Of a DNA stretch of 64,000 nt, positions 7,534 through 54,257 are shown piece by piece. The stretch is from Candidatus Poribacteria bacterium (GTDB lineage: Bacteria; Poribacteria; WGA-4E; WGA-3G), in assembly GCA_964291315.2 (NCBI GenBank), contig OZ219753.1, positions 2,112,001-2,176,000 on the forward strand, written 5' to 3'. The position numbers were made by a program, and so were the translations under genes. How positions within the stretch are numbered: position 1 is the first letter of the stretch; each line of letters opens with the position of its first letter. Below the pieces are notes generated by a model. The model did no database searches. It was given only the letters and a program-made list of their open reading frames with translations, and was not told where the DNA came from.

Positions 7534-7539
7534 ACGCAT

Positions 7540-24666: not shown

Positions 24667-27600
24667 TTACGGAGATACAGGTTTGACACAACGGAAACCG
24701 AGGTCTCCGCCCGTACTCACCGGTGCGCCACGGTCGCGATTTGCGACACGAGTCGTCTGGGCTGAATAGAGATAGGAGCCGCCGCGCAGGACACGGAGAT
24801 CATCCATCATTGTGTCTGGATCGCCTGACATCGGGTTCGTGGTAGGAGAACTCTGATAGAACACATCGTCATACGTATCCAGACACCACTCCCAGACATT
24901 CCCAGCCATGTCATAGAGACCATAACCATTCGCCGCATAACTGCCAACGTCCGTCGTGCTCCCTACGTTCTGACCATAGTTTGCCTTCGTAGCGTCTATG
25001 GTGTCGCCGCCGGGGTATAGTTTCCCAACTAACCCACCGCGCGCAGCATACTCCCATTGTGCTTCCGTGGGGAGCTCTTTGCCTGCCCACTTCGCATACG
25101 CTCTCGCACCATGCCAAGTGACTCTAATGACAGGCCGGTTCCCATGACCGGACTTGGCTTGATAGGTTGGGGTTTCCTGCCCTGCTACCAGCTCAATGCC
25201 TATGGCGGGATCCGTCATATCGAGCCAGGTCTTCCCTGCGTCGACGTGTTTGCCCTTTGCAGTAAGGAATGCCGCGAACTGTGTGTTCGTCACTTCATGC
25301 GTATCCATATAAAACGCACCTAAAGTGACAGTGTGAACAGGGCGTTCATCCGCATCGCCGATGGTGCTGCCCATCTTAAACGTGCCAGCGGGGATCAGCG
25401 CCATGCCCGGCGGTAGCGTGGGTGTCACGACAGGTGTTTCGACAGGTGTCGGGGATGTCTCGACAGGTACCTTGACAGGTGTCTGAACAGGCACCTGGGA
25501 CTGGAGGTTTCCATCATTATTCTCATTACTGTTAGCAGGGGCGATAGGTATAACACAACGGAAACCGCTGACGAAGTTAGAACCTCCTGCCCAATTGCCA
25601 CTGCGGGCATGAACCATAATGCTTAGATGATCGGAATCCCAGTGCCCGCCACGAAGCTCACGGGTACCTGTAGCCGCTTTATAGTTAGCCAATAGCGCTT
25701 GGATACTACTGTTTGCATCCCTCAGAGGATTCGTCTTCGCACCACTTGAATAGGCGGTGTAGGTGTCTAAACACCATTCGTAATGATTTCCTGCCATATC
25801 ATACAACCCGTAGCCGTTGGCTGCATAACTGCCGATTGGCATGGAGTCAAACTTAAACCCGTAGCGCATGTTGGCATGGTCCTCGGTACCATTGCCGTCG
25901 TTGCCGTCGTTGCCCCAGGGGAATGCTTGACCGACTAAGCCGCCGCGTGCAGCATACTCCCACTCCGCCCCCGTCGGCAGCCGCTTGCCTGCCCACTCCG
26001 CATACGCCATCGCACCATACCAGCTCACATGAGCAACAGGGTGATTTCCATAACCCGCTACCGGCGTATATCTACCGTCTGATAACCTAATCTTCACCTT
26101 ATTATTGTTGCCGCTGAGGTGGATCCAGGTCTTCCCTGCATCGGTATGTTTCCTCTTTGCATTGAGGAACGCAGCGTATTCTGTGTTCGTCACTTCATGC
26201 GTATCCATATAAAACGCATCTAAAGTGACAGAATGAATAGGGCTCACAAACCCCCCACCGAGCGCGCCCATCTGAAATGTGCCAGCGGGGATCAGCGCCA
26301 TGCCTGCAGGTGTCTCGACAGGTGTCTCGACAGGTGTCGGGGTTTTCTTGACAGGTACCTTGACAGGTGTCTGAACAGGCACCTGGGACTGGAGGTTTCC
26401 ATCATTATTCTCATTACTGTTAGCAGGGGCGATAGGTATAACACAACGGAAACCGCTGACGAAGTTAGAACCTCCTGCCCAATTGCCACTGCGGGCATGA
26501 ACCATAATGCTTAGATGATCGGAATCCCAGTGCCCGCCACGAAGCTCACGGGTACCTGTAGCCGCTTTATAGTCAGCCAATAGCGCTTGGATACTACTGT
26601 TTGCATCCCTCAGAGGATTCGTCTTCGCACCACTTGAATAGGCGGTGTAGGTGTCTAAACACCATTCGTAATGATTTCCTGCCATATCATACAACCCGTA
26701 GCCGTTGGCTGCATAACTGCCGATTGGCATGGAGTCAAACTTAAACCCGTAGCGCATGTTGGCATGGTCCTCGGTACCATTGCCGTCGTTGCCGTCGTTG
26801 CCCCAGGGGAATGCTTGACCGACTAAGCCGCCGCGTGCAGCATACTCCCACTCCGCCCCCGTCGGCAGCCGCTTGCCTGCCCACTCCGCATACGCCATCG
26901 CACCATACCAGCTCACATGAGCAACAGGGTGATTTCCATAACCCGCTACCGGCGTATATCTACCGTCTGATAACCTAATCTTCACCTTATTATTGTTGCC
27001 GCTGAGGTGGATCCAGGTCTTCCCTGCATCGGTATGTTTCCTCTTTGCATTGAGGAACGCAGCGTATTCTGTGTTCGTCACTTCATGCGTATCCATATAA
27101 AACGCATCTAAAGTGACAGAATGAATAGGGCTCACAAACCCCCCACCGAGCGCGCCCATCTGAAATGTGCCAGCGGGGATCAAGACCATACCTTCAGGAA
27201 CGGCGGGAGCGGGAGGAGGCGGAGGAGGTGGGAGAGTAGACACCGACACCCAGTCAGAAGTAACGACCACTTCAGCACCACTATCCCCGGTCTCGTATAC
27301 CATAAAACCATCCGAGTGCTCTAACTCCTCCTTGGCACGATCCGAATACAGCAACTCCTCCTGCGTTACACCATTCTCGAACTGACCCGACACAATACGA
27401 AACTTCCGCTTCGGATGAACCCAGAACTCGAACGTGCCACTGCTGCTCTCCGGTTTTAACGCACCATCCGCGTTTGATATGTGGAAAAAAGACTCGTTGT
27501 CCGCCCACGAATGAAACACCCTACCTTTACCCGGAGGGATACGATAGCTGCCACGCGTCCGAAACCCTTCAGGCCACCCCTTCCTCGGATTCTCAACCTT

Positions 27601-28233
27601 CCAAGTCGCAAAGACCACGTATATATCTTCTTCCCGCTCATTTCTTACGATGTTCTCTACCCACGCAGGCGGAGCAACATCTTCAACGGGCGGACCACCA
27701 TCGTCTCCGAGCTCGTCATTTGGCGGAGCAGTCGGCTGCCCATCTAGCAACACCCACGCCGGAGTGACAACCACTGCCGAGCCGCCCGTATAGCTGACAA
27801 ACCCCTCTAATTGAACCAACTGACCCGGCGAACGATCAGAGTAAAGCAGCTGATCCGTTGTCACAGAGGCATCGAGCGTCTGTGAGACAACGCGGAAGGA
27901 GCGCTTCGGATGAGCCCAGAACGCAAAAGCGGTGGTGCCGCTGTTCGCTTTTATCGCACCCGCAGCGTTTGAAATACGGAAATACATGCTGTTGGTGTCC
28001 CAGGAATGGAAAATCCTGGACATCCCGGGCGGGATGCGGTATGAGCCGCGGGTCCGGAACCCTACGGGTATACCTTTGTTATCATCCGCTGCCTGCCAGG
28101 TGCTCTTGATCACATAGATCTCTTCGAGCGTGTTATTGGTTACCAGGTTCTCTTGCCATTCTGCCGTCGCGAACGGGGCGCTCGCAAACATAAACGCGGC
28201 AAGCATAGAAAGAACCACTCCGGTTCTTTTCAT
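24667..28233 (-). CDS. Secreted protein: two N-terminal beta-rich repeats plus three FGE-sulfatase (CLec-fold) domains
   Basis: Signal peptide; two ~140-aa repeats with GFRTRGSYRIPPG; three MxLIPAGTFxMG...LPTxAxWEYAARGG...NGYGLYDMAGN..EW...RGG...GFRC domains with Pro/Thr linkers. Confidence 0.92.
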   Translation of the reverse strand: MKRTGVVLSMLAAFMFASAPFATAEWQENLVTNNTLEEIYVIKSTWQAADDNKGIPVGFRTRGSYRIPPGMSRIFHSWDTNSMYFRISNAAGAIKANSGTTAFAFWAHPKRSFRVVSQTLDASVTTDQLLYSDRSPGQLVQLEGFVSYTGGSAVVVTPAWVLLDGQPTAPPNDELGDDGGPPVEDVAPPAWVENIVRNEREEDIYVVFATWKVENPRKGWPEGFRTRGSYRIPPGKGRVFHSWADNESFFHISNADGALKPESSSGTFEFWVHPKRKFRIVSGQFENGVTQEELLYSDRAKEELEHSDGFMVYETGDSGAEVVVTSDWVSVSTLPPPPPPPAPAVPEGMVLIPAGTFQMGALGGGFVSPIHSVTLDAFYMDTHEVTNTEYAAFLNAKRKHTDAGKTWIHLSGNNNKVKIRLSDGRYTPVAGYGNHPVAHVSWYGAMAYAEWAGKRLPTGAEWEYAARGGLVGQAFPWGNDGNDGNGTEDHANMRYGFKFDSMPIGSYAANGYGLYDMAGNHYEWCLDTYTAYSSGAKTNPLRDANSSIQALLADYKAATGTRELRGGHWDSDHLSIMVHARSGNWAGGSNFVSGFRCVIPIAPANSNENNDGNLQSQVPVQTPVKVPVKKTPTPVETPVETPAGMALIPAGTFQMGALGGGFVSPIHSVTLDAFYMDTHEVTNTEYAAFLNAKRKHTDAGKTWIHLSGNNNKVKIRLSDGRYTPVAGYGNHPVAHVSWYGAMAYAEWAGKRLPTGAEWEYAARGGLVGQAFPWGNDGNDGNGTEDHANMRYGFKFDSMPIGSYAANGYGLYDMAGNHYEWCLDTYTAYSSGAKTNPLRDANSSIQALLANYKAATGTRELRGGHWDSDHLSIMVHARSGNWAGGSNFVSGFRCVIPIAPANSNENNDGNLQSQVPVQTPVKVPVETSPTPVETPVVTPTLPPGMALIPAGTFKMGSTIGDADERPVHTVTLGAFYMDTHEVTNTQFAAFLTAKGKHVDAGKTWLDMTDPAIGIELVAGQETPTYQAKSGHGNRPVIRVTWHGARAYAKWAGKELPTEAQWEYAARGGLVGKLYPGGDTIDATKANYGQNVGSTTDVGSYAANGYGLYDMAGNVWEWCLDTYDDVFYQSSPTTNPMSGDPDTMMDDLRVLRGGSYLYSAQTTRVANRDRGAPVSTGGDLGFRCVKPVSP
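25462..27182. repeat. Near-perfect intragenic tandem duplication, 888-bp period
   Basis: 25462-26294 matches 26350-27182; one difference seen (25686 T vs 26574 C, Asn/Asp). Confidence 0.92.
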
Positions 28234-28248
28234 TTTGAGCCTCCTTTT

Positions 28249-28268
28249 ATCTGTGAAGATACACAGAT
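28249..28268. promoter_or_regulatory. Conserved palindrome before the RBS (copy 1 of 3)
   Basis: ATCTGTG-TATCTT-CACAGAT on the coding strand; identical at 43882-43901 and 52557-52576. Confidence 0.7.
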
Positions 28269-28418
28269 ATCTGCTTGTCCTTAAGTTTTACTTACTGCAT
28301 TATTAATATTGGAACAGCAAGTGATTTTTCCCCTATCATCTTGACAGGTTAAGGGGTTATTATAACTTAACTTTAAGTTTTTGTCTAACATATTTCCGTT
28401 TAAACGCGACATACCGAC

Positions 28419-28769
28419 TCAACGTTGATTCTCTTTTTGTAGATCAGAGAGGGCCGGTGGTATTTCTTCTTCAATAGCGAATTGCAATTTTTCGATCATT
28501 CGGTGCAATGGCAATTCATATTTTTCCTGAAGGCGGCGTTTTTCATCAGCAATATGGAAGGCGACGAGTAGTGGTACTTTCTGCTCGTCAAAACCCTTCC
28601 TGAGATAGGATTCAACTACAGTTCTAACGTACTCAACAAGCTCGTTGATATTGTCTGCAGTCAGGTCATCCGTTGGTTTAATAGTATAAGGCATGCCGAG
28701 TATAACGAATCGAATAGGTTTAAAATCGTGTGCTTGCTCTTGCATTATGTTATTATAGACCCCTTTCAT
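28419..28769 (-). CDS. zapA: Cell division protein ZapA-like
   Basis: ILGMPYTI strand, LVEYV, LLVAFHIADE then coiled coil; start may be 28745. Confidence 0.65.
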   Translation of the reverse strand: MKGVYNNIMQEQAHDFKPIRFVILGMPYTIKPTDDLTADNINELVEYVRTVVESYLRKGFDEQKVPLLVAFHIADEKRRLQEKYELPLHRMIEKLQFAIEEEIPPALSDLQKENQR

Positions 28770-28814
28770 ATTTTTTCACGAACCGTCTAAGATTGTAAGG
28801 TTGCTCTACATCCC

Positions 28815-29675: not shown

Positions 29676-29696
29676 TGTAGCCTGGTTCTCCGAAAA

Positions 29697-33278: not shown

Positions 33279-33391
33279 TTTTTTTATCCTTTAACTCAGC
33301 ATAGGGATCCGAAAAGAATATTGCAGCAAGATTTCTGTAACAACGATATGGTGTTACGTCTAGGTTCCAAAGCTCATGAGGGAAGGATGCC

Positions 33392-41862: not shown

Positions 41863-41985
41863 TTTCATTAATTTAAAGGGATGTCCAGATTGAATCAGAT
41901 AGTAATATCAGACCCTAGGTTTCTGTGATCAGACCCGCTCAATGTCTCCGTTGACGTAGAATTGTGCTCCGCTTGATCTATAGAT

Positions 41986-43866
41986 TCACGGGTTTACTGG
42001 CTTCACACACCGAAAACCGAAGACATTGGAACCACCCCAAGTCGTATATCTATAGCGACTCGTGACCGACAAGTATGTTTCTGAATTGTACCAGTCGCCG
42101 CCGCGAATGACGCGCTCTTGGGGCTGTTCATACTTATTCAAGGACGAGTAAGTACCTAGATCCGCCTTATAGTTATCTAACAAGTCTTGGATGCTGGTTG
42201 CAATCGACAACGACACCGGATTGTGGGTCGGAGATTTTGCGTAGTAGTCAGCATCATACGTATCGAGACACCACTCCGCTGCATTCCCGATCATATCATA
42301 GAGACCGTACCCGTTCGGCGGATAACTACCGACTGGCGTCGAACGGCCGAGGCCGCGGTTATTATAGTTCGCCTTGGTTTTATCTATGGTGTCTCCCCAC
42401 GGATATCGCTTGCCTGCTAAGCCGCCGCGTGCAGCATACTCCCACTCTGCTTCGGTTGGCAGTCGCTTTCCTGCCCACCTAGCATATGCCATCGCACCCC
42501 GCCATCTTACATAAATGACAGGATGATTCTCATAGCCTGCCCGTGGGCGATACACACCGTCTACTAAGATAATATTTGTAGAAGCTGTACCGATACTCAC
42601 CCAGCGCCACCAGATATTTTCATGTTTGCCCATTGCGTTGAGAAATGCTGCGTATTCTGCGTTTGTCACTTCGTGTGTATCCATATAAAAGGCATCTAAG
42701 GACACAGCGTGAACAGGGCTTTCGTCCGCATCGCCGGTAGTGCTGCCCATTTGGAAGGTGCCAGCGGGGATCAACACCATGCCCGCAGGAGCTGACGGGT
42801 TTACCGGAGGCACTGGCGTTTCAGGCGGTACTGGAGTGACATCGTCATTCCCGTTATCATCATTCCTGTCATCTATAGGAGAGACCGGCACCCAATCAGC
42901 AGTCACCGTCACGTCAGAACCGCTCTCATACACCATAAAACCATCCGAACGCTCTAACTTCGACACCGAACGATCCGAGTAACTCAGACCCGACTGCTCT
43001 ACTGTCGCAGCGACCTGATCCGAGACCAGCCGAAACGAACGACGCGGATGCAACCAGAACCCAAACGTCTCCGAACTCGCCTCCGGTTTTAACGCTCCCG
43101 CAGCATTGGCAATCCGAAAATAGATCTCGTTATCCGCCCAGGCATGAAATACGCGCCCCTTCCCTGAACGAATGCGATACGTGCCGCGCGTCCGAAACCC
43201 CTCCGGATACCCCTTTTTCAGGTTCTCCAACTTCCACGTCGCGTAGACTACATATAGATCGGCTTCCGTGGCATTTGTTATCACGCTCGCTACCCACGCA
43301 GGCGGCGCAACATCTTCACCAGGCCGACCACCATCGTCTCCGAGTTCGTCATTCGGCGGAGCAGTCGGCTGCCCATCTAGCGACACCCACTCCCGAGTGA
43401 CAACCACTTCGGAGCCACCCGTATAGCTGACAAATCCCTCCAATTGAACCAACTGATCCGGCGAACGATCAGAGTAGAGCAGCTGATCCGTCGTCACAGA
43501 GGCATCGAACGTCTGTGAGACAACGCGGAAGGAGCGACCCGGATGAGACCAGAACGCAAAATCCGTCGTGCCGCTGTTCGCTTTTATCGCATGCTCTGCG
43601 TTTGAAATACGGAAATAGATGCTGTTGGTGTCCCAGGAATGGAAAATCCTGGACTTCCCGGGAGCAAGCCGGTAAGAGCCGCGCGTCCAGAACCCTGCAG
43701 GGATACCTTTGTTATCATCTGCTGCCTGCCAGGTGCTCTTGATCACATAGATCTCTTCAAGCGTGTTATTGGTTACCATGTTCTCTTGCCATTCTGCCGC
43801 TGCGAACGGAACGCTCACAAATATGAGTGCGACGAGCGTTGTCAGAGCCAATATTGTTTTTCGCAT
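41986..43866 (-). CDS. Secreted protein: two N-terminal beta-rich repeats plus one FGE-sulfatase (CLec-fold) domain
   Basis: Paralog of 24667-28233; RLPTEAEWEYAARGG, NGYGLYDMIGN, RGGDW...GFRC. Confidence 0.92.
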   Translation of the reverse strand: MRKTILALTTLVALIFVSVPFAAAEWQENMVTNNTLEEIYVIKSTWQAADDNKGIPAGFWTRGSYRLAPGKSRIFHSWDTNSIYFRISNAEHAIKANSGTTDFAFWSHPGRSFRVVSQTFDASVTTDQLLYSDRSPDQLVQLEGFVSYTGGSEVVVTREWVSLDGQPTAPPNDELGDDGGRPGEDVAPPAWVASVITNATEADLYVVYATWKLENLKKGYPEGFRTRGTYRIRSGKGRVFHAWADNEIYFRIANAAGALKPEASSETFGFWLHPRRSFRLVSDQVAATVEQSGLSYSDRSVSKLERSDGFMVYESGSDVTVTADWVPVSPIDDRNDDNGNDDVTPVPPETPVPPVNPSAPAGMVLIPAGTFQMGSTTGDADESPVHAVSLDAFYMDTHEVTNAEYAAFLNAMGKHENIWWRWVSIGTASTNIILVDGVYRPRAGYENHPVIYVRWRGAMAYARWAGKRLPTEAEWEYAARGGLAGKRYPWGDTIDKTKANYNNRGLGRSTPVGSYPPNGYGLYDMIGNAAEWCLDTYDADYYAKSPTHNPVSLSIATSIQDLLDNYKADLGTYSSLNKYEQPQERVIRGGDWYNSETYLSVTSRYRYTTWGGSNVFGFRCVKPVNP

Positions 43867-43905
43867 GTTGTCTCTCCTTTTATCTGTGAAGATACACAGA
43901 TGTAT
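43498..43905. repeat. Left arm of ~410-bp inverted repeat (partner 52553-52964)
   Basis: Reverse complement matches the leader and 5' coding region of 52592-52999; 43291-43823 also matches 27658-28190 as a direct repeat at constant offset 15633. Confidence 0.88.
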
Positions 43906-44062
43906 GTTTCTTTTTATACTCGGTTTTACTTACGCTATTGTCAACATTAGATCGGTTGCGTAGAAAGATCTCGCCTCAAGGGCTTCGGAAACGGACACCA
44001 CTTGCAGCGGCAATCTGTACGTTCATAAGGTTGGCGAATTGTAATATTTCAAAACTAGTGTA

Positions 44063-44144
44063 CATAATATCACAAATGCACTTAATTGTCAAATTTGTAC
44101 CGTCATAATATCACAAATGCACTTAATTGTCAAATTCGTACCGT
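44063..44144 (-). promoter_or_regulatory. 41-bp tandem duplication, each unit a complete sigma70 promoter
   Basis: Units 44063-44103 and 44104-44144 (one mismatch); minus strand TTGACA-N17-TATTAT with extended TG, facing 41986-43866. Confidence 0.8.
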
Positions 44145-44265
44145 CATTTAGTTTTTGAGTAATTTCCATCTAGGTGCCCGAATGTAAGCAGAACATAGAC
44201 GAAATCCGTTCCTTGTATTACATTCTCGCTGCTAAAGAAATGGTGCCCGTAATTACCGTTTTCCC

Positions 44266-44294
44266 TTTACATTTTTTGCAAAGTGGAGTATACT
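44266..44294 (+). promoter_or_regulatory. Sigma70 promoter of the Rieske protein gene
   Basis: TTTACA-N17-TATACT. Confidence 0.6.
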
Positions 44295-44444
44295 ATTTGT
44301 ATCATCTAAATTTTTGTTAAGGCAAGCAGTCGCGGACATTTAAGTGCTACTTTTTATTTCTGCTGAAGCATCATAGAAGTAGTCAGCCAAAGTATGTTAG
44401 ACCAAAGATAGGGTGCGAAAAAAACGTCAATTAGGAGACTCATT

Positions 44445-46289
44445 GTGCATACACCAACTTCTCCGCTTGAGGAAACGGGTGTCGGTTCTGTTTATGTTGA
44501 AGAACTACCCCCGATAGAAATAGATGATACCGAGCTTGTTTATCATCGACTTTGCCCCGCTAAGGATTTCGAGGAACTCGAAGGCAAACCGTTTCACGTT
44601 AACGGTACACACCTGGCTGTTTTCAAGTCCAATGACAAATTTTACGCTGTTGATAACCGTTGTCCACACATGGGGTATCCTATGTCCAAAGGGAGTATCC
44701 GCGATGGGGTGCTTATTTGCCATTGGCATCACTGGGAATTTGACCTCAAGTCGGGTGCATGTTTTCTAGCGTCTGGCGATGATCTGAAAGCGTTCCCTGT
44801 GGAATTGCGAGACGATGGCTATTTGTACGTTGGATTAGCAAAGGGTGAACGCGAAGCAGCAAAACGGAGGGTTATTGACCGCGGCAAGCGCGCGCTTGAA
44901 CGTGGGCTCAAAGACCGGAGCACCTTCTTTATCGCCAAGGCCGTTACTGCGCTTCGTGATGCGGGTGCAAAGCCGGACGAGATTATTCAACAAGGACTCC
45001 ACTACGGAGCCCATAAAAGCAGCGAGGGGTGGTCTTCTGGCGTTGCTATCCTCACGCTTGCAGCCAACCTTTGGGAAGATGTTGATCCAGAGGATCATAA
45101 CCTCTTTCTCGTACACGGGTTAAGCCAGATTAGTCGTAGGACCACGGGAAGCGCGCGTCCGTATCGTGCCCCCTTTCCGCGGCTCAGCGAGGCACACGAT
45201 CTAGAAACCCTGAAGCGATGGTTCCGTTATTTTATAGATAAACGTCATGCCGGCGCAGCAGAACGCATCTTGCTAACGCTTAACGACCGAGGCTACGATA
45301 AATCTGTCCTGGCAGACTTTGTCTTTACAGCTGCAACGGACTACTACTTCACTGGTGATGGACACGCCCTCGATTTTGGGAACAAAATGTTTGAGGCGTT
45401 GGATTACGTCAATTGGAAAGGCTCACACGAGATTTTGCGCCCGATAGTGGTCGATCTAGTCAGTAGAACACGACATGAAGAGACCTCTCGATGGGCTGAC
45501 GCTGTACCCGTCTTAGAACCACTCTTTGAGAGACTTGATAGTATGTGGCAAGACAATCAAGCCAACGAAGCAGAGCTCGATATTCCAGCGTTCACACAGA
45601 CCCTGCTTGGTGATGAGTTTGAACCGACTGTTGCTGTAGTTGAACGGAAGATTCGCGCCGGTGTCGACCCGATCGATATCTGTCGCGCGATGACTTACGC
45701 CTCAGCGATTCGAACTGCCCGGTTCCACCTCAAAAACGAGGGAGACTGGCACGATGTCGCCAACATTTATTCTTACGCCCATGCACTTTATCATGCTTTC
45801 CACTATGCCCCGAGCGCTAACCTGTTGCGTGGGATTTTCCACGGGGTTGTTTTCTTGGCATATTTGCGCTGGTTGAACATGCCAGCTGCTCGTATTCCGA
45901 GACCCGGACAACGGATACCTGATGAAAACTACGATTCTCCTGACAAAATGTTAGACCGCTTGCAAGAGTTCGCCGACTTCCAGAAGGTCTATGAGGCGGA
46001 AATTCTTGTGAATCAGTACCTCGAAGAGCGGCATGACATCCGCGCCTTGAAACGAACGCTTGCGCACATCCTGCTGCGTGAAGATGCCGAGCTCCACATG
46101 TTTCAGGTCCTCGAAGTCGCCTTCCGGCATTACGACCTGTCAGACGATGTTGAAGAACAACGGATGCATTTGTTGGCAGCGACACGTTATATCACGGCGC
46201 AGAAGCTGATGAAGAACATTTTGTGGTCTACCGAGAACGCGGAACGGCTCGCGCGAGGCGAGTTGCTTAGCGAACGCGACGACGATTAG
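44445..46289 (+). CDS. Rieske [2Fe-2S] domain fused to a large helical domain of unknown function
   Basis: DNRCPHMG...LICHWHHWEFD Rieske ligands; RBS aggag before GTG. Confidence 0.85.
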   Translation: MHTPTSPLEETGVGSVYVEELPPIEIDDTELVYHRLCPAKDFEELEGKPFHVNGTHLAVFKSNDKFYAVDNRCPHMGYPMSKGSIRDGVLICHWHHWEFDLKSGACFLASGDDLKAFPVELRDDGYLYVGLAKGEREAAKRRVIDRGKRALERGLKDRSTFFIAKAVTALRDAGAKPDEIIQQGLHYGAHKSSEGWSSGVAILTLAANLWEDVDPEDHNLFLVHGLSQISRRTTGSARPYRAPFPRLSEAHDLETLKRWFRYFIDKRHAGAAERILLTLNDRGYDKSVLADFVFTAATDYYFTGDGHALDFGNKMFEALDYVNWKGSHEILRPIVVDLVSRTRHEETSRWADAVPVLEPLFERLDSMWQDNQANEAELDIPAFTQTLLGDEFEPTVAVVERKIRAGVDPIDICRAMTYASAIRTARFHLKNEGDWHDVANIYSYAHALYHAFHYAPSANLLRGIFHGVVFLAYLRWLNMPAARIPRPGQRIPDENYDSPDKMLDRLQEFADFQKVYEAEILVNQYLEERHDIRALKRTLAHILLREDAELHMFQVLEVAFRHYDLSDDVEEQRMHLLAATRYITAQKLMKNILWSTENAERLARGELLSERDDD

Positions 46290-46374
46290 TACTTATCAAT
46301 ATCAAAAGGGATCACGGTTCCCCAACTTCTTGAGCTGGGGGCCAGGCGAGCAACGGTATCTCGCAGCAACGTCG

Positions 46375-46418
46375 GGCCGTGGCTTGTAGGAATGTGATGT
46401 CTTACAGGTCACAGGCCT
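46375..46418 (+). repeat. Intergenic hairpin (REP-like)
   Basis: GGCCGTGGCTTGTAGGA pairs with TCTTACAGGTCACAGGCC allowing G-U pairs. Confidence 0.5.
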
Positions 46419-46448
46419 GGCAATGTTATTCTAAGCAAGGAGTTTGAA

Positions 46449-46934
46449 ATGAAGCTGGGCGTTATGTCCGATAGTCACGACAATATTCTAAACGTTAGGC
46501 GCACCGTTACACTTTTCAACGAGCAGGGCGTGGATCTCGTCGTCCATGCCGGAGATTTTATAGCACCGTTTGCCATTGACCCATTAGCGGGTTTGAACTG
46601 CCGCGTTGTGGGTGTTTTTGGAAATAACGATGGCGAACGGGTAATTGTCGCAAAACGGTTTGAGACCATCGGCGGCGAGGTGCACCCTAACCTTGCGGAC
46701 ATCTCCCTCGGTGACAAAAAGATTGCCGTGATGCATTATCCTGAGCTCGCCATACCGATCGCCAAAAGTGGTGATTACGATATCGTCGTCTACGGTCATA
46801 CCCACCAGATAGATATCCAGAAAGATAGATCTCTCTTACTCAATCCAGGGGAGACGGGAGGCTGGACGACAGAAAAGGCAACAGTTGCTGTTGTGGATAT
46901 CGTGACCCTTGAGGTAACAATCCACGAATTGTAG
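46449..46934 (+). CDS. YfcE/MJ0936-type metallophosphoesterase
   Basis: SDSHDN, HAGD, GNND, GHTH, LNPGE. Confidence 0.93.
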   Translation: MKLGVMSDSHDNILNVRRTVTLFNEQGVDLVVHAGDFIAPFAIDPLAGLNCRVVGVFGNNDGERVIVAKRFETIGGEVHPNLADISLGDKKIAVMHYPELAIPIAKSGDYDIVVYGHTHQIDIQKDRSLLLNPGETGGWTTEKATVAVVDIVTLEVTIHEL

Positions 46935-47044
46935 AGATAGGCGTGAGACTGATTGCTGGCCTCCGATTTATTGGGTATACCCGAGATCGCGCAGCCTGCC
47001 TTCTAAAACTTCTGTCTCCTCAGCTTAATAATTGAGAGGTGTTA

Positions 47045-47923
47045 ATGCCAAACATACCCGTTGAAACTGTTGATACTATAACTGACTTTGAGACGCTCTT
47101 AGCGTTCTTTCGTGACACTCTCGACTGGCCGATCCCCGAAGACGTGACGCTCGGCGAGATAGCTTTCCCGTGGTCGTCAGCAGAGCTGGATCTTGATGAA
47201 ACGGCTGAGGCACGAGTCGCTGACTGTCTGCAGCTGCCGCCGTTCGCGCGCGAGGCGTTGGGATTTTCTCCCGAGGTCGGCTCGCAGCCGTGGGGCATCT
47301 TCTTTGTTGAATTCAGCAGTGAGCGGGTGTATCGCACGGGGTTGCGGCGGGTTCTGCGAGGTCTGGTTGAAAGGCGCGCCCGAGACGCACGGCTGCCTGC
47401 GTGGGAGCTGGATCATCTGCTGTTCATCTGCACGACTGCTGATTTTCATCGGTTTGCGTTTGCCCACTTTGCAGGTGCGGGTGCGTCTTGGCAGGATGCG
47501 GTGCTGTCTATATTCTCGTGGGATCGTGGGGATACGCACCTTCGGACGCTGTGTGAATACAACCTGCCGGCCCTTATTTTTCCGCGTGGCGGTTTTTCCT
47601 CTCCGCAAGCATGGATTGCTAAATGGCAGCGTGCGTTTGATGTGGCGGTTGTGACGGATCAGTTTTTCCGTGAGTATAAGAGCGTCTTCGCGTCAGTGGA
47701 GGCCTCGCTGTCAGGGATTCCAGCGAGCGAAGTGGAGGCTCGTCGTCTGTATACGCAGCGTCTGTTGAATCGTTTGATGTTTCTGCGTTTTCTTGAGAGA
47801 AAAGGTTGGTTGCGGTATGCGGGTCGTCGGGACTACTTTCGTGCGTTGTATGAGGCGGCGGTGGGGATAGGATCGCCCTCTGGGAGTGCGGAATCTATAA
47901 GAAGCGGGGGGGGTAATCTCTGA
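47045..47923 (+). CDS. Type IIG restriction-modification enzyme, N-terminal part (ends just after a G8 tract)
   Basis: RBS gagagg; AFDVAVVTDQFFREY and QRLLNRLMFLRFLERKGWL are typical of the type IIG helical region. Confidence 0.75.
   Translation: MPNIPVETVDTITDFETLLAFFRDTLDWPIPEDVTLGEIAFPWSSAELDLDETAEARVADCLQLPPFAREALGFSPEVGSQPWGIFFVEFSSERVYRTGLRRVLRGLVERRARDARLPAWELDHLLFICTTADFHRFAFAHFAGAGASWQDAVLSIFSWDRGDTHLRTLCEYNLPALIFPRGGFSSPQAWIAKWQRAFDVAVVTDQFFREYKSVFASVEASLSGIPASEVEARRLYTQRLLNRLMFLRFLERKGWLRYAGRRDYFRALYEAAVGIGSPSGSAESIRSGGGNL
47906..47913 (+). repeat. Poly-G8 tract at the frameshift of the type IIG gene
   Basis: agc-GGGGGGGG-taatc; removing one G joins both ORFs in frame. Confidence 0.85.
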
Positions 47924-47951
47924 TAAGCACAAGGAGCCTCGGACAGAGAGC

Positions 47952-50252
47952 TTGCTCAACGACCGGCTCTATTACGTCTTCTTCCGCGGTCTCGGAACCC
48001 CCGCTGACGTGTCCGATGCCGAAGCCGCCTTGGCTCGCAGTCGGCGCGGCGATGTGCCGTTCCTCAACGGCGGCCTCTTCGAGATGCAGCCGTATGATGA
48101 ACGACACGCCGTGGATATTCCAAACGACACCTTTGCTGACATCCTCAACCTCTTTGAACGTTATAACTTCACGATCACCGAATCCACGCCGCTAGACATA
48201 GAGGTTGCAGTGGATCCCGAGATGCTCGGTAAGGTGTTTGAGGAACTGGTCACGGGCCGGCACGCCAGTGGGAGCTACTACACGCCGCGTGCGGTTGTCT
48301 CTTTCATGTGTCGGGAGAGCCTGAAGCTCTGCCTCCAGACGCAGACAGCAGAGACCGCGGCATGCCTGACACAGTTCGTAGACGGTGGCGATGCCGCGGG
48401 GATCCGCGATTCAGAGGGCGTGTTAGCGGTGCTGCAGAACTTACGGGTGTGTGATCCTGCGTGTGGGAGCGGTGCGTATCTACTCGGGATGATGGGCGAA
48501 CTGCTTCGCCTACGCGATGCTCTGTTCCAAAGCGATCAGACCGATACTCGTACGGTGTATGAACGCAAGCTGGAGATTATCCGGAAGAACCTTTACGGTG
48601 TAGACAGAGACGGCTTCGCAGTCAACATCGCGATGCTGCGCCTCTGGCTCAGTCTCACAGTGGATTACGAAGGTGACGTGCCACAGCCGCTGCCGAACTT
48701 GGACTATAAGGTTGCAACGGGAGACAGCTTGACCGGGGCAGCCCCGGAACAGATGACGTTTGAAAGGCCGTTGATCCAAGCGATACAGGAGAAACAAGCG
48801 GACTATTTCATCACACACGGGGACGCAAAGAAAGAGGCACTCCGAGCGGAGATCGCCGCACTCCGAGCGGATCTTCAAGGCTGGCAAGCGAGTGCTGATG
48901 AGTTTGTCTGGCAGGTTGAGTTTCCGGAGGTCTTCCAAGCGGGCGGTTTTGATGTCGTGATCGGCAACCCACCTTATGTGCGACAAGAACTTATCAAAGC
49001 GATGAAGCCGACTTACAAACGGCTATTCCCAGAGGTGTATGTCGGCACCGCAGACCTCTACGTCTATTTTTACAAGCGCGGCACGGAGCTGCTGCGGAGG
49101 CACGGCATCTTGGCGTATATCTCCTCAAACAAGTTTTTGCGGGCAGCGTATGGCAGAAAACTGCGCGCATTTTTCTGCGATGCCCAACGCATTCAGCGGC
49201 TGCTTGACTTTGGGAGCGTCTCTGTCTTCAAGGCGAGTGTGGATACCTGTATCCTGATCCTTGAAAATGCTACATCAGACGGAGCGCCTGTTTCGGTGGC
49301 GACGTTTCGGGAGGCGTCCGATGTGCTGCGGCTGTCTGTGGCGTTTCGGGAGCGGGCGTTTCGGCTGCAGCCGCGTGATTTATCAGCGGAGGGCTGGACG
49401 TTGGCATCGCCCGAGACACTGCAGCTCCTGCGGAAACTCGAAACCACCGGCACACCCCTCGGCGAATATGTCAAGGAAGGTTTTTATATGGGAGTGAAGA
49501 CAGGATATAACAAGGCATTTATCATCGATGCGGCTGTGCGGCAGCGGCTGATCTCCGAGGATCCGAAGAGCAATGAGCTCATAAAGCCTTTGCTCAGAGG
49601 GCGAGACCTTAGAAAGTGGCGGACGGATAGCACAGGGCAATATCTGATTTTCACACGGCAAGGGGTTGAGATTGACCGATACACGGCTGTCAAGAAACAT
49701 CTGAGCCAATATAGAAGAAACTTGGAGCCGAAAAAAAGTAGAGCCGAAAAATATGGGAGGAAAATGGGCAGTTATAAGTGGTATGAGATCCAAGACGTTG
49801 TCGCATACTATGCAGAGTTTGAAAAACCGAAGATTTTGTACCCAGAGATTTCAAAGGAGCTTTACGCGGGTTATGATACGAGTGGTGCATTTGGTTTAAA
49901 GACAACTTACTCTATTCCAACCAACGATCTCTCTTTGCTCGCTATATTAAATAGCAGACTTTTTGATTGGTATGCAAGGCACAGTTTCGGGAGTTTGGGT
50001 GACACTTGGGAAGGTGGAGGACTTTTCTTTTTTCGCCAATATATGGAGCAGGTTCCTATAGTAGATCGGACTGATGCGCAGAAAGCGGAGCTGTCGCGGC
50101 TTGTCGAGCAGATATTGGCAGACCCAGAGGGCGACGGTGTGCGCGACATCGAGCGGGAGATAGATGAGCGGGTGTATCGGGTGTATGAGCTAACGGATGC
50201 GGAGATCGCGTTGATTGAGCAGACGTATCGTGAGGCGGGGATGGCGCGGTGA
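47952..50252 (+). CDS. Type IIG (Eco57I/TaqI_C-like) RM enzyme, MTase and specificity part
   Basis: PFLNGGLF, DPEMLGKVFE, GSYYTP, DPACGSGAY, VIGNPPY, KPLLRGRD, PKILYPEI; no RBS at the TTG, so probably a continuation of the upstream ORF. Confidence 0.85.
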   Translation: MLNDRLYYVFFRGLGTPADVSDAEAALARSRRGDVPFLNGGLFEMQPYDERHAVDIPNDTFADILNLFERYNFTITESTPLDIEVAVDPEMLGKVFEELVTGRHASGSYYTPRAVVSFMCRESLKLCLQTQTAETAACLTQFVDGGDAAGIRDSEGVLAVLQNLRVCDPACGSGAYLLGMMGELLRLRDALFQSDQTDTRTVYERKLEIIRKNLYGVDRDGFAVNIAMLRLWLSLTVDYEGDVPQPLPNLDYKVATGDSLTGAAPEQMTFERPLIQAIQEKQADYFITHGDAKKEALRAEIAALRADLQGWQASADEFVWQVEFPEVFQAGGFDVVIGNPPYVRQELIKAMKPTYKRLFPEVYVGTADLYVYFYKRGTELLRRHGILAYISSNKFLRAAYGRKLRAFFCDAQRIQRLLDFGSVSVFKASVDTCILILENATSDGAPVSVATFREASDVLRLSVAFRERAFRLQPRDLSAEGWTLASPETLQLLRKLETTGTPLGEYVKEGFYMGVKTGYNKAFIIDAAVRQRLISEDPKSNELIKPLLRGRDLRKWRTDSTGQYLIFTRQGVEIDRYTAVKKHLSQYRRNLEPKKSRAEKYGRKMGSYKWYEIQDVVAYYAEFEKPKILYPEISKELYAGYDTSGAFGLKTTYSIPTNDLSLLAILNSRLFDWYARHSFGSLGDTWEGGGLFFFRQYMEQVPIVDRTDAQKAELSRLVEQILADPEGDGVRDIEREIDERVYRVYELTDAEIALIEQTYREAGMAR

Positions 50253-50323
50253 AAAAGAGGGCGGCATTCGGAGGTACCTCCTACAGCGGAAAAACAGACA
50301 TTCCACAAGGTATGTAGTCTTAT

Positions 50324-52240
50324 CTAATCTGGTAGAATACGGTAGCCTGTGCTGACCCCAGTGATCATCCCGATGATTGCCCAGAGTCCTGCACATGTCA
50401 TCTCCCCGAGAACGAGACCGAGGAAAATTGGCCGCGCGGCCCGATACGCCTTCAACCCGCCATATTTCACGATGCTGAACTTCAGCCCCCAGCCTAGAAA
50501 TATTGAGAACCAGAGTTTGAACGTTGCCCAGGAGCTCAACATCGTGTAACCGAGCGGGTGCAGGGGCCACCACACAAAGGTTTGACGCATCCACATTAAC
50601 CAGACTGTGAAAGCGCTTCCAAAGAGCATAAACCCGGTATTTGTCCAATCCGTGCTGGTCTTTGGACTTGTAAGAAGACCTTCAAGCTGCCGCATGAACC
50701 AACTGCCGCCAGTATACGGAGCGCCGTGTGCATAACTGATTTTTATTGCAGAGTAGTAGGAAACAGCAAGTCCGATGACCATCGCAGCCGCCATTGCAAC
50801 CAGAAGTTGCCGTCGCTTAATGCGGGCATCGTCCGCCGCTTTCAAGCCGTTCATGATATTAGGCATCATAAATTCACGGAGATCCAACGTCAGACACACC
50901 GGATGCATCATCATGGAGGTCACCGTAGAGGGATGGATCTTTGAGGTACCGAGGGTTGTCAGGAAGAAGCTTTGCGGCGAGAAGGTCGGGTTGATGAACG
51001 GAATCCCACCGTTAATGACCTGCCACGTCAATAGGATATACATTGCAAGCAGGAATAGCACAAAACCGAACGCGAACAACAGCGACATTCCCATCAGATG
51101 ATTAAAAAACGCGAGTACACAGATACCGCCAAGTAACCCGAAAATCGTCACGCTATGCGGAAGGGGTTCATCAGAGGCTCGGAACTGAAGCATGTTTTTT
51201 ATGTGATGTCGCATCTTCCAGAGCGCAATAGCGCCAAATGCCAGACATGCCCCGGCCTCTTGCGATGCGCTAAATGACTTACCTGTCCACTGAACACCTG
51301 GCCCCGACGTGAGTTGGAAACCGAGCATTACCCCCAAAAGAGATTGTAATTTGTAGAAGAGAAAGAAAAACCAAATACTAAACGATACTTCTAGTGTCAG
51401 GAGGTAACTAAACCCTACCATGGACCAAAAAACGACGATCTGAAATGGGCGTAGAGCGCTCCATGGGCGTTCTGTGATATATTGGTTAAGCCAGAAATCG
51501 CGTGGAATATGTGGTGCGGCGGGGAAGAATGTGTGCAGACCGTTCATTGTATGCAGAAGCACCGGAAACGCAAACCCGAACCAGAGCGCACTGTTCTTAA
51601 AAAGCGGACCGAGACTACCACGCCCCTGCGCTGCCATCTCCACCGGCAACTTAACGAGGGGAAAAGCACAACGCTCGTATTCTACCCACTGTTTGCGGAG
51701 AAGCACAGAGAGACAGATCATCACAAAATAGACGACCAGCACGTAGGCACTCCACGTCAAGATCGGCGTTAGCCATGCCGCCCACGGCACAGATTCGCCT
51801 GCGAATAGGCCCTCAAAAAAGGAGCGGGCTGCTGTTTCGTCTTGAACCACTCGCCAGTGCGGAATATAGTGGTGGAATAACGATTCCCAATCGTTTTCCG
51901 GGGTGGCAAGATACTGATAAGCCACCATCGGGCTTAGCGCGTAACGCATCATCCCTGAAGATGGAATCCCTGCAGGGGCAAGCATGATACACCAGATTGT
52001 GACCAGTTCTCCGGTTGAGAACGCCGAGGCAGGATGGACCCGTTTCAGGATAACATTGATGCCTAACACAAAAAACGTCAAGACAAAGAAAGGCCCGACA
52101 GGGAAATGTCCGCCTGCAAGGAAAATGTTGCGGATGACGTAATCGTTATAAGGGGCGAGAAGACATTCAGTTGTGGCACATACCAAACCGATCAGCACTG
52201 CACGCCACGTGAGACTATTCCGGGCTTGTCGCTCAATCAA
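50324..52240 (-). CDS. DUF6785/DUF6784-like polytopic membrane protein (putative peptide transporter)
   Basis: TWRAVLIG, LRKQWVEYERCAFPL, WWPLHPLGY, KYGG, PIFLGLVLGE. Confidence 0.75.
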   Translation of the reverse strand: MIERQARNSLTWRAVLIGLVCATTECLLAPYNDYVIRNIFLAGGHFPVGPFFVLTFFVLGINVILKRVHPASAFSTGELVTIWCIMLAPAGIPSSGMMRYALSPMVAYQYLATPENDWESLFHHYIPHWRVVQDETAARSFFEGLFAGESVPWAAWLTPILTWSAYVLVVYFVMICLSVLLRKQWVEYERCAFPLVKLPVEMAAQGRGSLGPLFKNSALWFGFAFPVLLHTMNGLHTFFPAAPHIPRDFWLNQYITERPWSALRPFQIVVFWSMVGFSYLLTLEVSFSIWFFFLFYKLQSLLGVMLGFQLTSGPGVQWTGKSFSASQEAGACLAFGAIALWKMRHHIKNMLQFRASDEPLPHSVTIFGLLGGICVLAFFNHLMGMSLLFAFGFVLFLLAMYILLTWQVINGGIPFINPTFSPQSFFLTTLGTSKIHPSTVTSMMMHPVCLTLDLREFMMPNIMNGLKAADDARIKRRQLLVAMAAAMVIGLAVSYYSAIKISYAHGAPYTGGSWFMRQLEGLLTSPKTSTDWTNTGFMLFGSAFTVWLMWMRQTFVWWPLHPLGYTMLSSWATFKLWFSIFLGWGLKFSIVKYGGLKAYRAARPIFLGLVLGEMTCAGLWAIIGMITGVSTGYRILPD

Positions 52241-52323
52241 TTTTGACCTTTCCTATTTCTATGCTTCGAGGCTTTCCGTAAGTATACCACACTTCTGCTG
52301 TTTCCGTTTAAAAAATAACGTGC

Positions 52324-52352
52324 TTGACGCATTGGATATTTTATGCTATACT
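52324..52352 (+). promoter_or_regulatory. Sigma70 promoter upstream of the collapsed FGE paralog
   Basis: TTGACG-N17-TATACT with extended -10 TG. Confidence 0.7.
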
Positions 52353-52591
52353 GTTAACAACGTATAAAATAGAGAGAAGGAAGTAATCCATGAAAGTTTT
52401 AGATACTGATACTTCCGTTGAAATGTCGAGAGGATTTAGCGAATATTACCTGCCGCGGTTCCCTAAGTATCGGCTAAGTCCTGTTGTCGGCTTATTTTTT
52501 AATAAGCATCACCCTCTCCATTCATTAACTTCAAAAATAAAAAGCAATAAATATACATCTGTGTATCTTCACAGATAAAAGGAGAGACAAC

Positions 52592-52999
52592 ATGCGAAAA
52601 ACAATATTGGCTCTGACAACGCTCGTCGCACTCATATTTGTGAGTGTTCCGTTCGCGGCAGCAGAATGGCAAGAGAGCATGGTAACCAATAACACGCTCG
52701 AAGAAATCTATGTGATCAAGAGCACCTGGCATGCAGCAGATGATAACAAAAACATCCCCACAGGGTTCCGGACCCGCGGCTCTTACCGCATCCCTCCCGG
52801 GAAGTCCAGGATTTTCCATTCCTGGGACACCAACAGCATCTATTTCCGTATTTCAAACGCAGAGCATGCGATAAAAGCGAACAGCGGCACCGCCGCTTTT
52901 GCGTTCTGTCTGGGCTCATCCGAATCGCTCCTTTCGCGTCGTCTCACAGACGCTCGATACCTCTACGGGTTCCGTTGTGCAAGGTCAGTTTCTCCTTGA
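52592..52999 (+). pseudogene. Internally deleted paralog of the FGE-domain secreted proteins
   Basis: Leader and first ~105 codons match 41986-43866; a 4-bp TCTG duplication near 52906-52912 shifts frame; homology stops at ~52964 and jumps to YGFRCARSVSP-stop. Confidence 0.85.
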
Positions 53000-53138
53000 A
53001 ACTTTATTGCCGAACGCCTTTTATCTTGAGATAAATCGCTGAAAGGCACTGAAGCTACAAATTACTTGTTCACTGTAGGGAGGAAACGCTGATTTTCGCC
53101 GACATCATAGATGCGAAGTGTGCTATAATAGTGATCTA

Positions 53139-53226
53139 GGGGGAACGACAGCGGATAAATATCCAGCGAATGGTTATGGATCGCATCGACTTTGGGTTTC
53201 GTTGTGTGAGGCGTGTATATCGTTGA
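53139..53226 (+). pseudogene. Collapsed FGE-domain remnant
   Basis: Encodes GGTTADKYPANGYG then, in another frame, IDFGFRCVRRVYR-stop; 53194-53233 matches 54140-54179 at 39/40 nt. Confidence 0.75.
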
Positions 53227-53302
53227 ACCTTTACTATTTAACACTACCGCTGTTATGCAAGTGGGGTGGACTTAACAATTAATAGATGAAATGAGGTGAA
53301 AT

Positions 53303-54172
53303 ATGTTTAAATGGAAATCGCTAGTTGTTACTTTATCGGGCATCGTTTTTTGTATAGGCATACTTCAAGCGGAAGAGACGGAGACAGACAGAGATATCTC
53401 TGCAGAATTGGCCCCTGCGGGCATGGTATTGATCCCAGCGGGTACATTTCAGATGGGTAGCAACAGTGGTGGCGGCAATGAAAGTCTTGTTCATTCTGTA
53501 TCTATAGATGCGTTTTATATGGATACGCATGAGGTGACGAATGCAGACTATGCGGCGTTTCTGAATGCAGAAGGCAAACATACCGATGCTGGCCATACGT
53601 GGTTGGATATTGCGGATGGCGATGTGCACATTGCGTTAGTAGACGGCGCGTATCGTGCGAAATCGGGGCATGAGAATCATCCTGTTGTTGAGGTGAGCTG
53701 GTATGGTGCGATGGCGTATGCTGCGTGGGCGGGCAAGCGGCTGCCGACCGAGGCGGAGTGGGAGTATGCTGCACGCGGCGGCAAGCCTGGTCTGAAGTAT
53801 CCGTGGGGAAACACTATTGACAGTACACACGCGAACTACGGCAATAAAGTAGGGGGGACAACGGCAGTAGGTAAATATACAACGAATGGGTATGGTCTGT
53901 ATGATATGATAGGGAATGTTTGGGAATGGTGCTTAGATGAGTATAATGAGAATTTCTATGCAAGCTCTCCTGACCGGAACCCGCTATCGGGTGCATCTAG
54001 CATTAAGTGGTTATTAGACAACTGCACAAAAGTCAAGTCTTACCGCGTCTTGCGTGGCGGCTCCTGGCTCGATACAGCACTGGACGTGTGGGTCACCACC
54101 CGCTACAGCTATAGGCCAGCGGTCACACACGACATCGTCGGGTTTCGTTGTGTGAGGCATGTATATCGTTGA
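53303..54172 (+). CDS. Secreted single-domain FGE-sulfatase (CLec-fold) protein
   Basis: RBS gaggtg, signal peptide, RLPTEAEWEYAARGG, GNVWEW, RGGSW...GFRC; no catalytic Cys pair. Confidence 0.92.
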   Translation: MFKWKSLVVTLSGIVFCIGILQAEETETDRDISAELAPAGMVLIPAGTFQMGSNSGGGNESLVHSVSIDAFYMDTHEVTNADYAAFLNAEGKHTDAGHTWLDIADGDVHIALVDGAYRAKSGHENHPVVEVSWYGAMAYAAWAGKRLPTEAEWEYAARGGKPGLKYPWGNTIDSTHANYGNKVGGTTAVGKYTTNGYGLYDMIGNVWEWCLDEYNENFYASSPDRNPLSGASSIKWLLDNCTKVKSYRVLRGGSWLDTALDVWVTTRYSYRPAVTHDIVGFRCVRHVYR

Positions 54173-54257
54173 ACCTTTAGCCGGTGGAACGTTTGAAGTT
54201 AAGGTGTGTTATACCAATAACTTGCAAGTCTATAAGCGCCTCATCCCCCGGTTTTCC

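Follow-up and report, generated by a model that had tools for sequence, protein, structure and literature searches.

Do the genes for secreted lectin-fold proteins that lie scattered over a 64-kb stretch of a Candidatus Poribacteria genome form an actively diversified repertoire of binding proteins, and what would be diversifying them? The stretch (hereafter the window) covers positions 2112001-2176000 of contig C4 in a 4.4-Mb assembly of four contigs that is 95.2% complete. A preliminary description had read from it a shuffled family of proteins with a C-type lectin (CLec) fold of the formylglycine-generating enzyme (FGE) type, i.e., a display scaffold of diversity-generating retroelements (DGRs). 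We consider it probable that the window samples an expanded family of non-catalytic lectin-fold proteins in which one gene, D, was written by a DGR and then decoupled from it, while two others, A and B, were recombined and two further loci, C1 and C2, are debris. Open reading frame (ORF) listing and Pfam find three intact genes with PF03781 matches (A, B, and D), and repeat finding together with the sequence itself adds two deletion remnants (C1 and C2), which bears out the three intact and two collapsed loci of the preliminary description. Positions with a prefix and a colon lie outside the window; C1 and C2 without one are the remnants.

24667-28233, minus strand: gene A, 1188 aa; signal peptide, modules N1 and N2, three FGE/CLec domains; apparent paralog mosaic
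41986-43866, minus strand: gene B, 626 aa; signal peptide, N1, N2, one FGE/CLec domain; apparent mosaic of three paralogs
53303-54172, plus strand: gene D, 289 aa; signal peptide and a single FGE/CLec domain
52592-53006, plus strand: C1 remnant; signal peptide and ca. 100 codons of N1, joined to the end of an FGE gene
53140-53233, plus strand: C2 remnant of a D-like gene

Pfam assigns three, one, and one FGE domains to A, B, and D, the same numbers as had been read before, and the hydrophobic N-terminal leaders of all three proteins, which by eye end in AAA or LQA, mark them as secreted. In gene D, the PF03781 match spans residues 39-285 of 289 and is preceded by the signal peptide only, without N1 or N2. 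These are two copies of a ca. 165-aa module that share ca. 45-50% identity with each other in genes A and B. The 5' module that had been described as constant, i.e., signal peptide plus N1, is indeed common to A, B, and C1 (not D), and N2 is found in A and B as well. Hypervariable C-terminal windows are likewise present: in an alignment of the four distinct window domains, this part (LRGG...GFRCV, 35 aa) is 31-46% identical as opposed to 58-65% for the rest of the domain.

The engine that could write such windows is encoded elsewhere in the genome. ORF listing and Pfam scans of the 64-kb window revealed neither a recombinase nor a reverse transcriptase (RT), in agreement with the earlier remark that no driving enzyme is found there. 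A genome-wide search for RT and Avd, which had been suggested at the same time, turned up Avd and two RVT_1 genes at C4:495 kb and C3:32 kb, i.e., 1.6 Mb from the window and on another contig, respectively, each beside FGE genes. The order of these cassettes is target gene (N-module plus FGE domain), Avd (NF033474, 112.7 bits against a cut-off of 80, with a bAvd match in addition), RT, an FGE C-terminal fragment, and more FGE genes. With two sets of Avd, RT, and template repeat (TR), the anticipated role of the FGE scaffold in DGR display holds for this genome. In the C3 cassette, the FGE fragment is a classic TR with 12 AAC/AAT codons and the single intact template of the assembly; no further AAY-rich template was found among 135 GFRC-type sites in the assembly. 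Its counterpart in the C4 cassette (C4:496289-496402) is identical to it in the 5' half and carries 14 changes, all at adenines, in the 3' half, and reads as a chimera of TR and variable region (VR) in frame with the next FGE gene.

A gapless scan with the 114-nt template gave 46 sites at ≥55% identity that form a graded series. Six VRs and the chimera show 0-4 non-adenine and 13-24 adenine mismatches, an intermediate class shows 6-14, and the rest diverge at all bases. In the RT-linked VRs (C4:494579-494692 and C3:33446-33559) and several remote ones, all departures from the template are at adenines, with identity at 28/28 non-A positions of the core in 7 of the 21 sites examined. The two cassette copies (C4:492578-496400 and C3:31735-35563) are 97% identical over 3.8 kb, and 30 of the 64 differences between their target genes fall into the final ca. 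100 nt with none in the preceding 185 columns. A second patch at columns 742-1073 holds 31 of the 64 and looks like a conversion tract. Among 18 congeners, one encodes an orthologous RT (83% identical) together with a template that is identical at 110 of 114 positions and a VR that differs at adenines only. Since the target differences cluster in the VR of cassettes that are 97% identical and the congener shows the same pattern, these sequences indicate that the DGR has been active, including after the duplication of its cassette. The targets of both DGRs belong to the family of the window genes.

Among the window genes, only gene D carries the DGR fingerprint:

54044-54157, plus strand: VR of gene D; mutable core at 54068-54139; ends 15 nt before the stop codon

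In this region, 18 of the 34 template adenines are changed, against 7 of the 80 non-A positions (Fisher p = 7.6e-7). All 12 AAY template codons keep their third base and are changed in the first two (NNY), and the in-register VRs show the same pattern; at eight footprint-less sites examined (B, the third FGE domain of A, and six X-class controls), the AAY third base is kept in 5-9 of 12 cases. Because of the adenine bias and the retention of all 12 third bases, we conclude that the VR of gene D was written by adenine mutagenesis, i.e., by the DGR mechanism.

Several features set gene D apart from the VRs that are in register with the template. Its core is identical to the template at 24 of 28 non-A positions and differs at 54089, 54095, 54114, and 54127, whereas each of the six RT-linked or near-RT VRs shows 0/28 such differences. 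Current targets as delimited in PMC5758913 change from A to N only, with minor exceptions allowed, and the four non-A changes among 28 positions place gene D outside this class. The GFRC-coding end is kept, but the tail reads HVYR* instead of the SVSP* of the in-register VRs. Also absent is an 11-bp GC hairpin that stands ca. 58 nt 3' of the RT-linked VRs and may be required by this DGR. Given the core non-A changes, the missing hairpin, the different tail, and the lack of a second template, gene D is most likely a remote target that has been decoupled or survives as a relic. Its 5' end is closest to small FGE genes in the C3 cassette (53220-53399 matching C3:31288-31378 and C3:30100-30193), and it shows no near-identical mosaic tracts, with a best paralog identity of 75-94%. 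We read gene D as a dispersed copy of a cassette gene that would have lost contact with the template.

The large genes A and B present another picture:

24682-24795, minus strand: VR-equivalent of the third FGE domain of gene A (A3), no DGR footprint
42001-42114, minus strand: VR-equivalent of gene B, no DGR footprint
25421-27196, minus strand: 888-bp tandem duplication in gene A; FGE domains 1 and 2, 98-100% identical

Compared to the template, the A3 window has 22 A and 23 non-A mismatches, keeps the AAY third base in 6 of 12 codons and 21 of 28 core non-A positions, and is near-identical to a paralog at C4:563437; for gene B, the respective values are 19 A and 25 non-A mismatches, 7 of 12, and 16 of 28, and here, too, the window is near-identical to those of other paralogs. 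The proposal of DGR diversification for these loci thus stands for the adenine footprint of gene D, itself out of register and without the hairpin, and falls for A and B. Instead of being DGR-written, both genes appear to be mosaics of at least three paralogs each. In gene A, the N1 tract is 99-100% identical to C4:775294-775653, N2 is 97-99% identical to C1:511622-511921 (on contig C1), and the third FGE domain is 96-100% identical to C4:562783-563562. In gene B, N1 is 95-99% identical to the gene at C4:2770112, N2 is 99-100% identical to the gene at C4:775279 (with a perfect run of 383 nt against a maximum of 68 in 2000 shuffles), and the FGE domain is 94-100% identical to the gene at C4:1414127. 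Elsewhere, gene B and its donor-like paralogs are only 46-78% identical, with third codon positions tracking overall identity. The longest identical runs amount to 154-383 nt against shuffle maxima of 46-132, and 0 of 2000 shuffles reached the observed value in any of six gene pairs. The tracts are hundreds of nucleotides long with sharp borders, which lie near 42740-42800 and 43280-43460 in gene B and near 25400-25450 and 27200-27310 in gene A, and the mosaic genes have kept intact reading frames.

These mosaics likely arose by homologous recombination or gene conversion between paralogs. The genome search for tyrosine and serine recombinases that had also been suggested came back empty, i.e., without a match to PF00589 or PF00239, not even XerC/D-like, in the 95.2%-complete assembly, with positive controls in 14/14 and 12/14 genomes and other recombinase families not searched. 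Since no such enzyme is found in the assembly, general (RecA-type) recombination suggests itself as the shuffling mechanism. Deletions within the same unstable family would account for the two remnants. In C1, the 5' module is 93% identical to that of gene B over 363 nt apart from a 4-nt insertion near 52905, the N1 part runs without a break into the end of an FGE gene (its last 11 codons and the stop), and a paralog-type 3' element follows the stop codon up to ca. 53064. C2 consists of ca. 40 nt around "...TNGYG" joined to the last ca. 50 nt ("..GFRCVRRVYR*"), a tail that is 98% identical to that of gene D.

In the scenario that we favor, the window would thus hold five dispersed loci that lie between housekeeping genes and belong to a family of secreted FGE-type CLec proteins, one that is specific to this lineage and greatly expanded. 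The DGR of the two outside cassettes, with its Avd, RT, and TR, would rewrite the last ca. 70 nt of the lectin fold via adenine-specific mutagenesis, and gene D would have been written in this way before falling out of register with the sole intact template. Genes A and B would have exchanged N1, N2, and FGE modules with paralogs by recombination or gene conversion, on top of the tandem duplication, and C1 and C2 would be the deletion debris of this process.

A number of observations speak against this scenario or parts of it. The comparison of A and non-A positions is partly confounded by template adenines that sit at naturally variable positions of the fold, and paralogs without a footprint still give p values of 1e-2 to 1e-4 in this test; the codon third-base test is the cleaner of the two. 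The four non-adenine differences of gene D could mean that a second template is missing from the 95%-complete assembly: two of the four differing bases in D are adenines, and the remaining two could go back to mutated ones, so that gene D would possibly be a live target. Finally, the mosaics rest on one assembly, and public contigs are fragmented over A and B, which leaves room for chimeric assembly or polishing between paralogs.

If gene D were still live as a remote target, its VR would be rewritten in trans by the DGR or by a second template missing from the assembly, and the locus would be actively hypervariable. We regard this as unlikely, though among the alternatives it survives best. 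The NNY signature at 12/12 AAY codons would be expected of a live target, and the four non-A mismatches would all be compatible with a template variant carrying A there. Remote FGE targets are documented (PMC5758913, PMC4891356), and in this genome, too, VRs more than 100 kb from the RT keep the core register, with 28/28 at C4:1232007 and C4:1233679 and 27/28 at C1:562165 (contig C1). However, a live target is hard to reconcile with core non-A changes that are absent from the six RT-linked or near-RT VRs, with the lack of a second AAY-rich template among the GFRC-type sites, or with the missing hairpin and the deviant tail.

Contigs assembled from two runs of one study (X1 and X2; one possibly the source sample) also bear on this point. 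In X1, a single contig covers 53753-56000 and runs through gene D without a differing letter. In X2, pieces stop at 54035 and restart at 54076 with a contig that extends to 56000, covers most of the mutable core, and has only three differing letters in that span, and no variant of gene D was found at the level of 90% protein clusters. We also considered a joint seen only in X2 that connects 54067 to 54138 (skipping 70 nt; side 25, likeness 90) and coincides with the mutable core of gene D, yet short-sided joints are often derived from paralogs, and the reference-like contig from 54076 accounts for the single-copy depth; we therefore do not take it as VR variation. Other joints (41985 to 53030, 42625 to 53699, and others) are explained by paralog contigs. 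Protein clusters contained no variants of A, B, D, or the DGR targets, with the two cassette targets as the sole clustered pair. Taken together, the contig and cluster data neither confirm nor refute ongoing diversification. Of the actively shuffled repertoire that had been proposed, the mosaic composition of A and B stands.

An ordinary multigene family shaped by plain duplication, drift, and deletion, with mosaics that are artifacts of assembly or polishing, appears improbable. Expanded sets of FGE domains are common throughout the order, with 7-61 matches per genome in 30 relatives, and the window copies stand between housekeeping genes, i.e., those for shikimate dehydrogenase, 2-oxoacid:ferredoxin oxidoreductase, RecN, NAD kinase, RecG, and others. 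The fragmented public contigs, moreover, do not independently bridge the mosaic junctions. Drift cannot, however, produce the adenine-specific footprint of gene D, and artifacts would not readily explain long, sharply bordered tracts in intact reading frames; an assembly in only four contigs also suggests that long reads were used.

The family genes further share conserved sequences around their coding regions:

28250-28267, minus strand: 18-nt palindrome TCTGTGTATCTTCACAGA, directly 5' of the gene A ribosome-binding site (RBS)
43883-43900, minus strand: 18-nt palindrome, 5' of the gene B RBS
52558-52575, plus strand: palindrome before C1, at the end of the shared leader
52324-52591, plus strand: shared leader before the dead copy C1; promoter-like TTGACG-17-TATACT and ca. 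240-nt leader
44063-44144, minus strand: two tandem 41-nt units, 98% identical, each with TTGACA-17 nt-TATTAT; between gene B and a Rieske-domain gene

In the genome, the palindrome (TCTGTG-N6-CACAGA) is found 12 times where ca. 0.26 sites would be expected by chance. At 11 of these 12 sites it precedes the RBS of N1-type family genes, including A, B, and C1, by 8-10 nt, and in A and B it forms the exact 5' border of homology. An element of ca. 100 nt at the 3' end is common to A, C1, and other paralogs. With these two, the earlier claim of conserved non-coding elements before the RBS and after the stop codon is upheld, except that the 40-nt repeat at 52967, 53194, and 54140 that had been placed after the stop is mostly coding and comprises the last 11 codons plus the stop itself. 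A leader of ca. 260 nt that starts from a TTGACA-17-TATACT-type site is shared by five to six paralogs and C1 (e.g., L017:2637-2912 and L017:4944-5219). Its promoter is sigma-70-like, a 10-bp helix may form ahead of a T-run, and a short upstream reading frame terminates within the palindrome. No Rfam match was obtained for this leader, and an RNAalifold analysis of three leaders had too little variation to judge structure. The 41-nt units upstream of gene B (by ca. 200-280 nt) align with the promoter position of the paralog leaders; their hexamers were read from the sequence. Each of the three intact genes (A, B, and D) is equipped with a start codon, an RBS, and a signal peptide of its own. 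The simplest guess is that palindrome and leader co-regulate the family.

These elements could also be viewed as parts of a shufflon or cassette-type antigenic variation system in which a site-specific recombinase, acting at the palindrome or at inverted 5' modules, swaps promoters or modules. The palindrome at the very border of homology would fit this idea, as would the inverted orientation of B and C1 (8.6 kb apart, 93% identical over 363 nt) and the promoter-bearing leader in front of a dead copy. We nevertheless consider it very improbable: there is no recombinase in the window and no PF00589 or PF00239 match in the assembly, the mosaic borders lie inside coding modules away from the palindrome, and A, B, and D come with their own starts and RBSs (B even with its own promoter-like repeat). 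In Neisseria pilE/pilS and Borrelia vlsE, segments move between paralogs to create mosaic surface-protein genes, and the window family resembles these systems in its transfer of segments between paralogs. Unlike them, it has no single expression site with promoterless silent cassettes, since every window copy has its own start and the shared leader precedes several paralogs as well as C1, and it shows no evidence of programmed high-frequency switching. The interpretation of constant 5' and variable 3' ends as an antigenic-variation cassette is not supported: the N-module plus FGE arrangement is the domain architecture of ca. 25 genes across the genome, and what had been called constant is a rare domain at the N-terminus of secreted proteins with several domains rather than the constant region of a cassette.

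Regarding function, the best solved relatives of gene D by sequence are FGEs (E = 1.8e-35; 126 bits), and the structure of the Treponema denticola protein TvpA (2y3c) is matched at E = 1.5e-12. When gene D is aligned with the solved FGEs 6muj and 2q17, the enzyme's "LCHDSYC", with a cysteine pair that we take to be the catalytic one, stands opposite a gap and non-cysteine residues. None of the five window domains has this active-site pair, which follows the RGGS motif as C-x4-C, and a six-frame regex search for RGG-x(2-4)-C-x4-C gave 39 matches, none of them in an FGE context. Lacking the pair in all five domains, the window proteins are non-enzymatic; we regard them as secreted binding-type proteins of the CLec/FGE fold with an inferred ligand-binding function at the cell surface, as the preliminary description had argued in setting them apart from sulfatase-maturing enzymes. 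They share the Pfam domain and fold class of the Streptomyces coelicolor FGE (2q17/6muj) and differ from it by the absent cysteine pair, secretion, repeated domains, and a variable C-terminus. An assignment as PorK/GldK lipoproteins of the type IX secretion system (T9SS) was discarded, with TIGR03525 scores of 156 bits (D) and 138 bits (B) against an NCBIfam equivalog cut-off of 350. That the window genes would encode true FGEs maturing the sulfatases of this genome is next to inconceivable despite their strong PF03781 matches, the kinship with solved FGEs, and a sulfatase gene at 17999-19357, given the missing cysteine pairs, the secreted multi-domain architectures, a family that includes DGR-diversified members, and the structural precedent of TvpA, a DGR-diversified FGE-fold protein without FGE activity (PMC5758913).

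The family is unusually large in this organism, whose nearest named relatives are Candidatus Poribacteria metagenome-assembled genomes (MAGs) with RecN proteins of 73-75% identity. PF03781 has 67 matches in the genome, whereas the 18 congeners have 13-38 each and 12 genomes from elsewhere in the order have 7-61. For the N-module, the count is 47, with any match in only 7 of the 18 congeners (1-3 each, at 29-41% identity). One N-module copy lies at 43297-43797 on the minus strand. Among 1.84 billion representative proteins, the module has 83 relatives in which it mostly follows directly after the signal peptide, and in ten relatives that we scanned it precedes FGE, LRR, Big_1, dockerin/cohesin, or metalloprotease domains or T9SS-type tails. 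The AlphaFold model is a confident all-beta domain (mean pLDDT of 87). No Pfam family covers the module, Foldseek found no match in the PDB at E ≤ 0.001, the best hit of a wide structure search (Z of 6.4) is within the background range, and a search for related loci with the module yielded nothing. DUF1036 was considered and dismissed: it scored 0.88, below the line of 0.9, and is not among the 25 families shown for 40 members. The N-module may be an anchoring or sorting domain.

Much of this has precedents. FGE-type CLec proteins are the largest class of DGR targets (71/372), and targets more than 100 kb away as well as one target with three diversified FGE domains have been described (PMC5758913). 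Treponema denticola has 2-7 FGE targets including truncated, excess-mutation, leftover, and "suspicious" ones (PMC4891356). The DGR of this organism with its target TvpA is alike in that one RT/TR pair serves several far-off FGE-type CLec targets with the VR at the 3' end and differences at template adenines, and in that some targets are truncated, over-mutated, or leftover (PMC4891356, PMC5758913). What differs is the host, a Poribacteria MAG rather than a spirochaete, and the far larger family with 67 domain matches and ca. 25 genes with an extra N-terminal module. The cassette is also duplicated here, with one TR/VR chimera, many members lack a footprint, and paralogs are visibly recombined.

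In cyanobacteria, CLec paralogs are dispersed and show remnant TR-VR homology (PMC7517822). These targets, including Nostoc all3226, resemble the Poribacteria family in their dispersal, graded TR homology, and grafting of the CLec domain to other N-terminal domains. The cyanobacterial partners are kinases or orthocaspases, i.e., signaling proteins, whereas the Poribacteria partner is a rare all-beta secreted module; in the available excerpts, this study speaks of recently duplicated and dispersed paralogs and not of mosaic gene conversion between them (PMC7517822). It is thus established that DGRs can have remote and decayed FGE-type targets; the mechanism is not new, and the window itself is without the engine. 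Novelty lies in the phylum of the host, in how large the family is, and in the graded series of targets, as well as in the rare N-module and the clear mosaicism. A full-text literature search had no paper describing a DGR in Candidatus Poribacteria among the matches listed.

One could go further and imagine a three-layer repertoire generator in which the DGR writes the tips, frequent gene conversion carries the written modules and two N-terminal modules among ca. 25 secreted paralogs and so fixes or retires them, and the palindrome and leader co-regulate or restrict expression. This extension of our favored scenario is doubtful. Under it, gene D would be a retired tip, and the remnants, which end within a few codons of the VR 3' end, could be scars of aberrant cDNA integration.

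As to the wider setting, the flanks of the C1/C2/D locus (51500-55445), a DUF6785 gene and an MR_MLE gene, are hundreds of kilobases apart in genomes of the same genus, and the locus therefore marks a species-specific rearrangement point. They are not adjacent in the 18 congeners, which left no orthologous D for comparison. Neither Rfam nor a tRNA search gave any match in the window. A two-ORF unit at 47039-50252 on the plus strand encodes a 294-aa protein with a weak N-terminal type IIG match and a 766-aa Eco57I/TaqI_C type IIG restriction endonuclease-methyltransferase. At least eight copies of this unit are found in the genome, with 89-94% identity from start codon to stop, differing flanks, and, in several of them, a specificity-domain part with identity down to ca. 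78%. The unit appears to represent a type IIG restriction-modification family that comes in multiple copies, is possibly split, and varies in specificity. A second defense-type gene at 4447-7605 on the minus strand encodes a 1052-aa type ISP/type IIG restriction-modification enzyme (Type_ISP_C, ISP_coupler, N6_Mtase).

What the window and its genome offer is a graded series that leads from in-register targets via the decoupled gene D to footprint-free paralogs and lays out the life cycle of DGR targets within a single genome, together with clear evidence for a reshuffling of the same modules by inter-paralog recombination. If confirmed by sequencing reads, the family would be a tractable natural case for studying how DGR-written binding sites get fixed, spread, or retired and would help to ask what the abundant surface lectin-fold proteins of Poribacteria bind.

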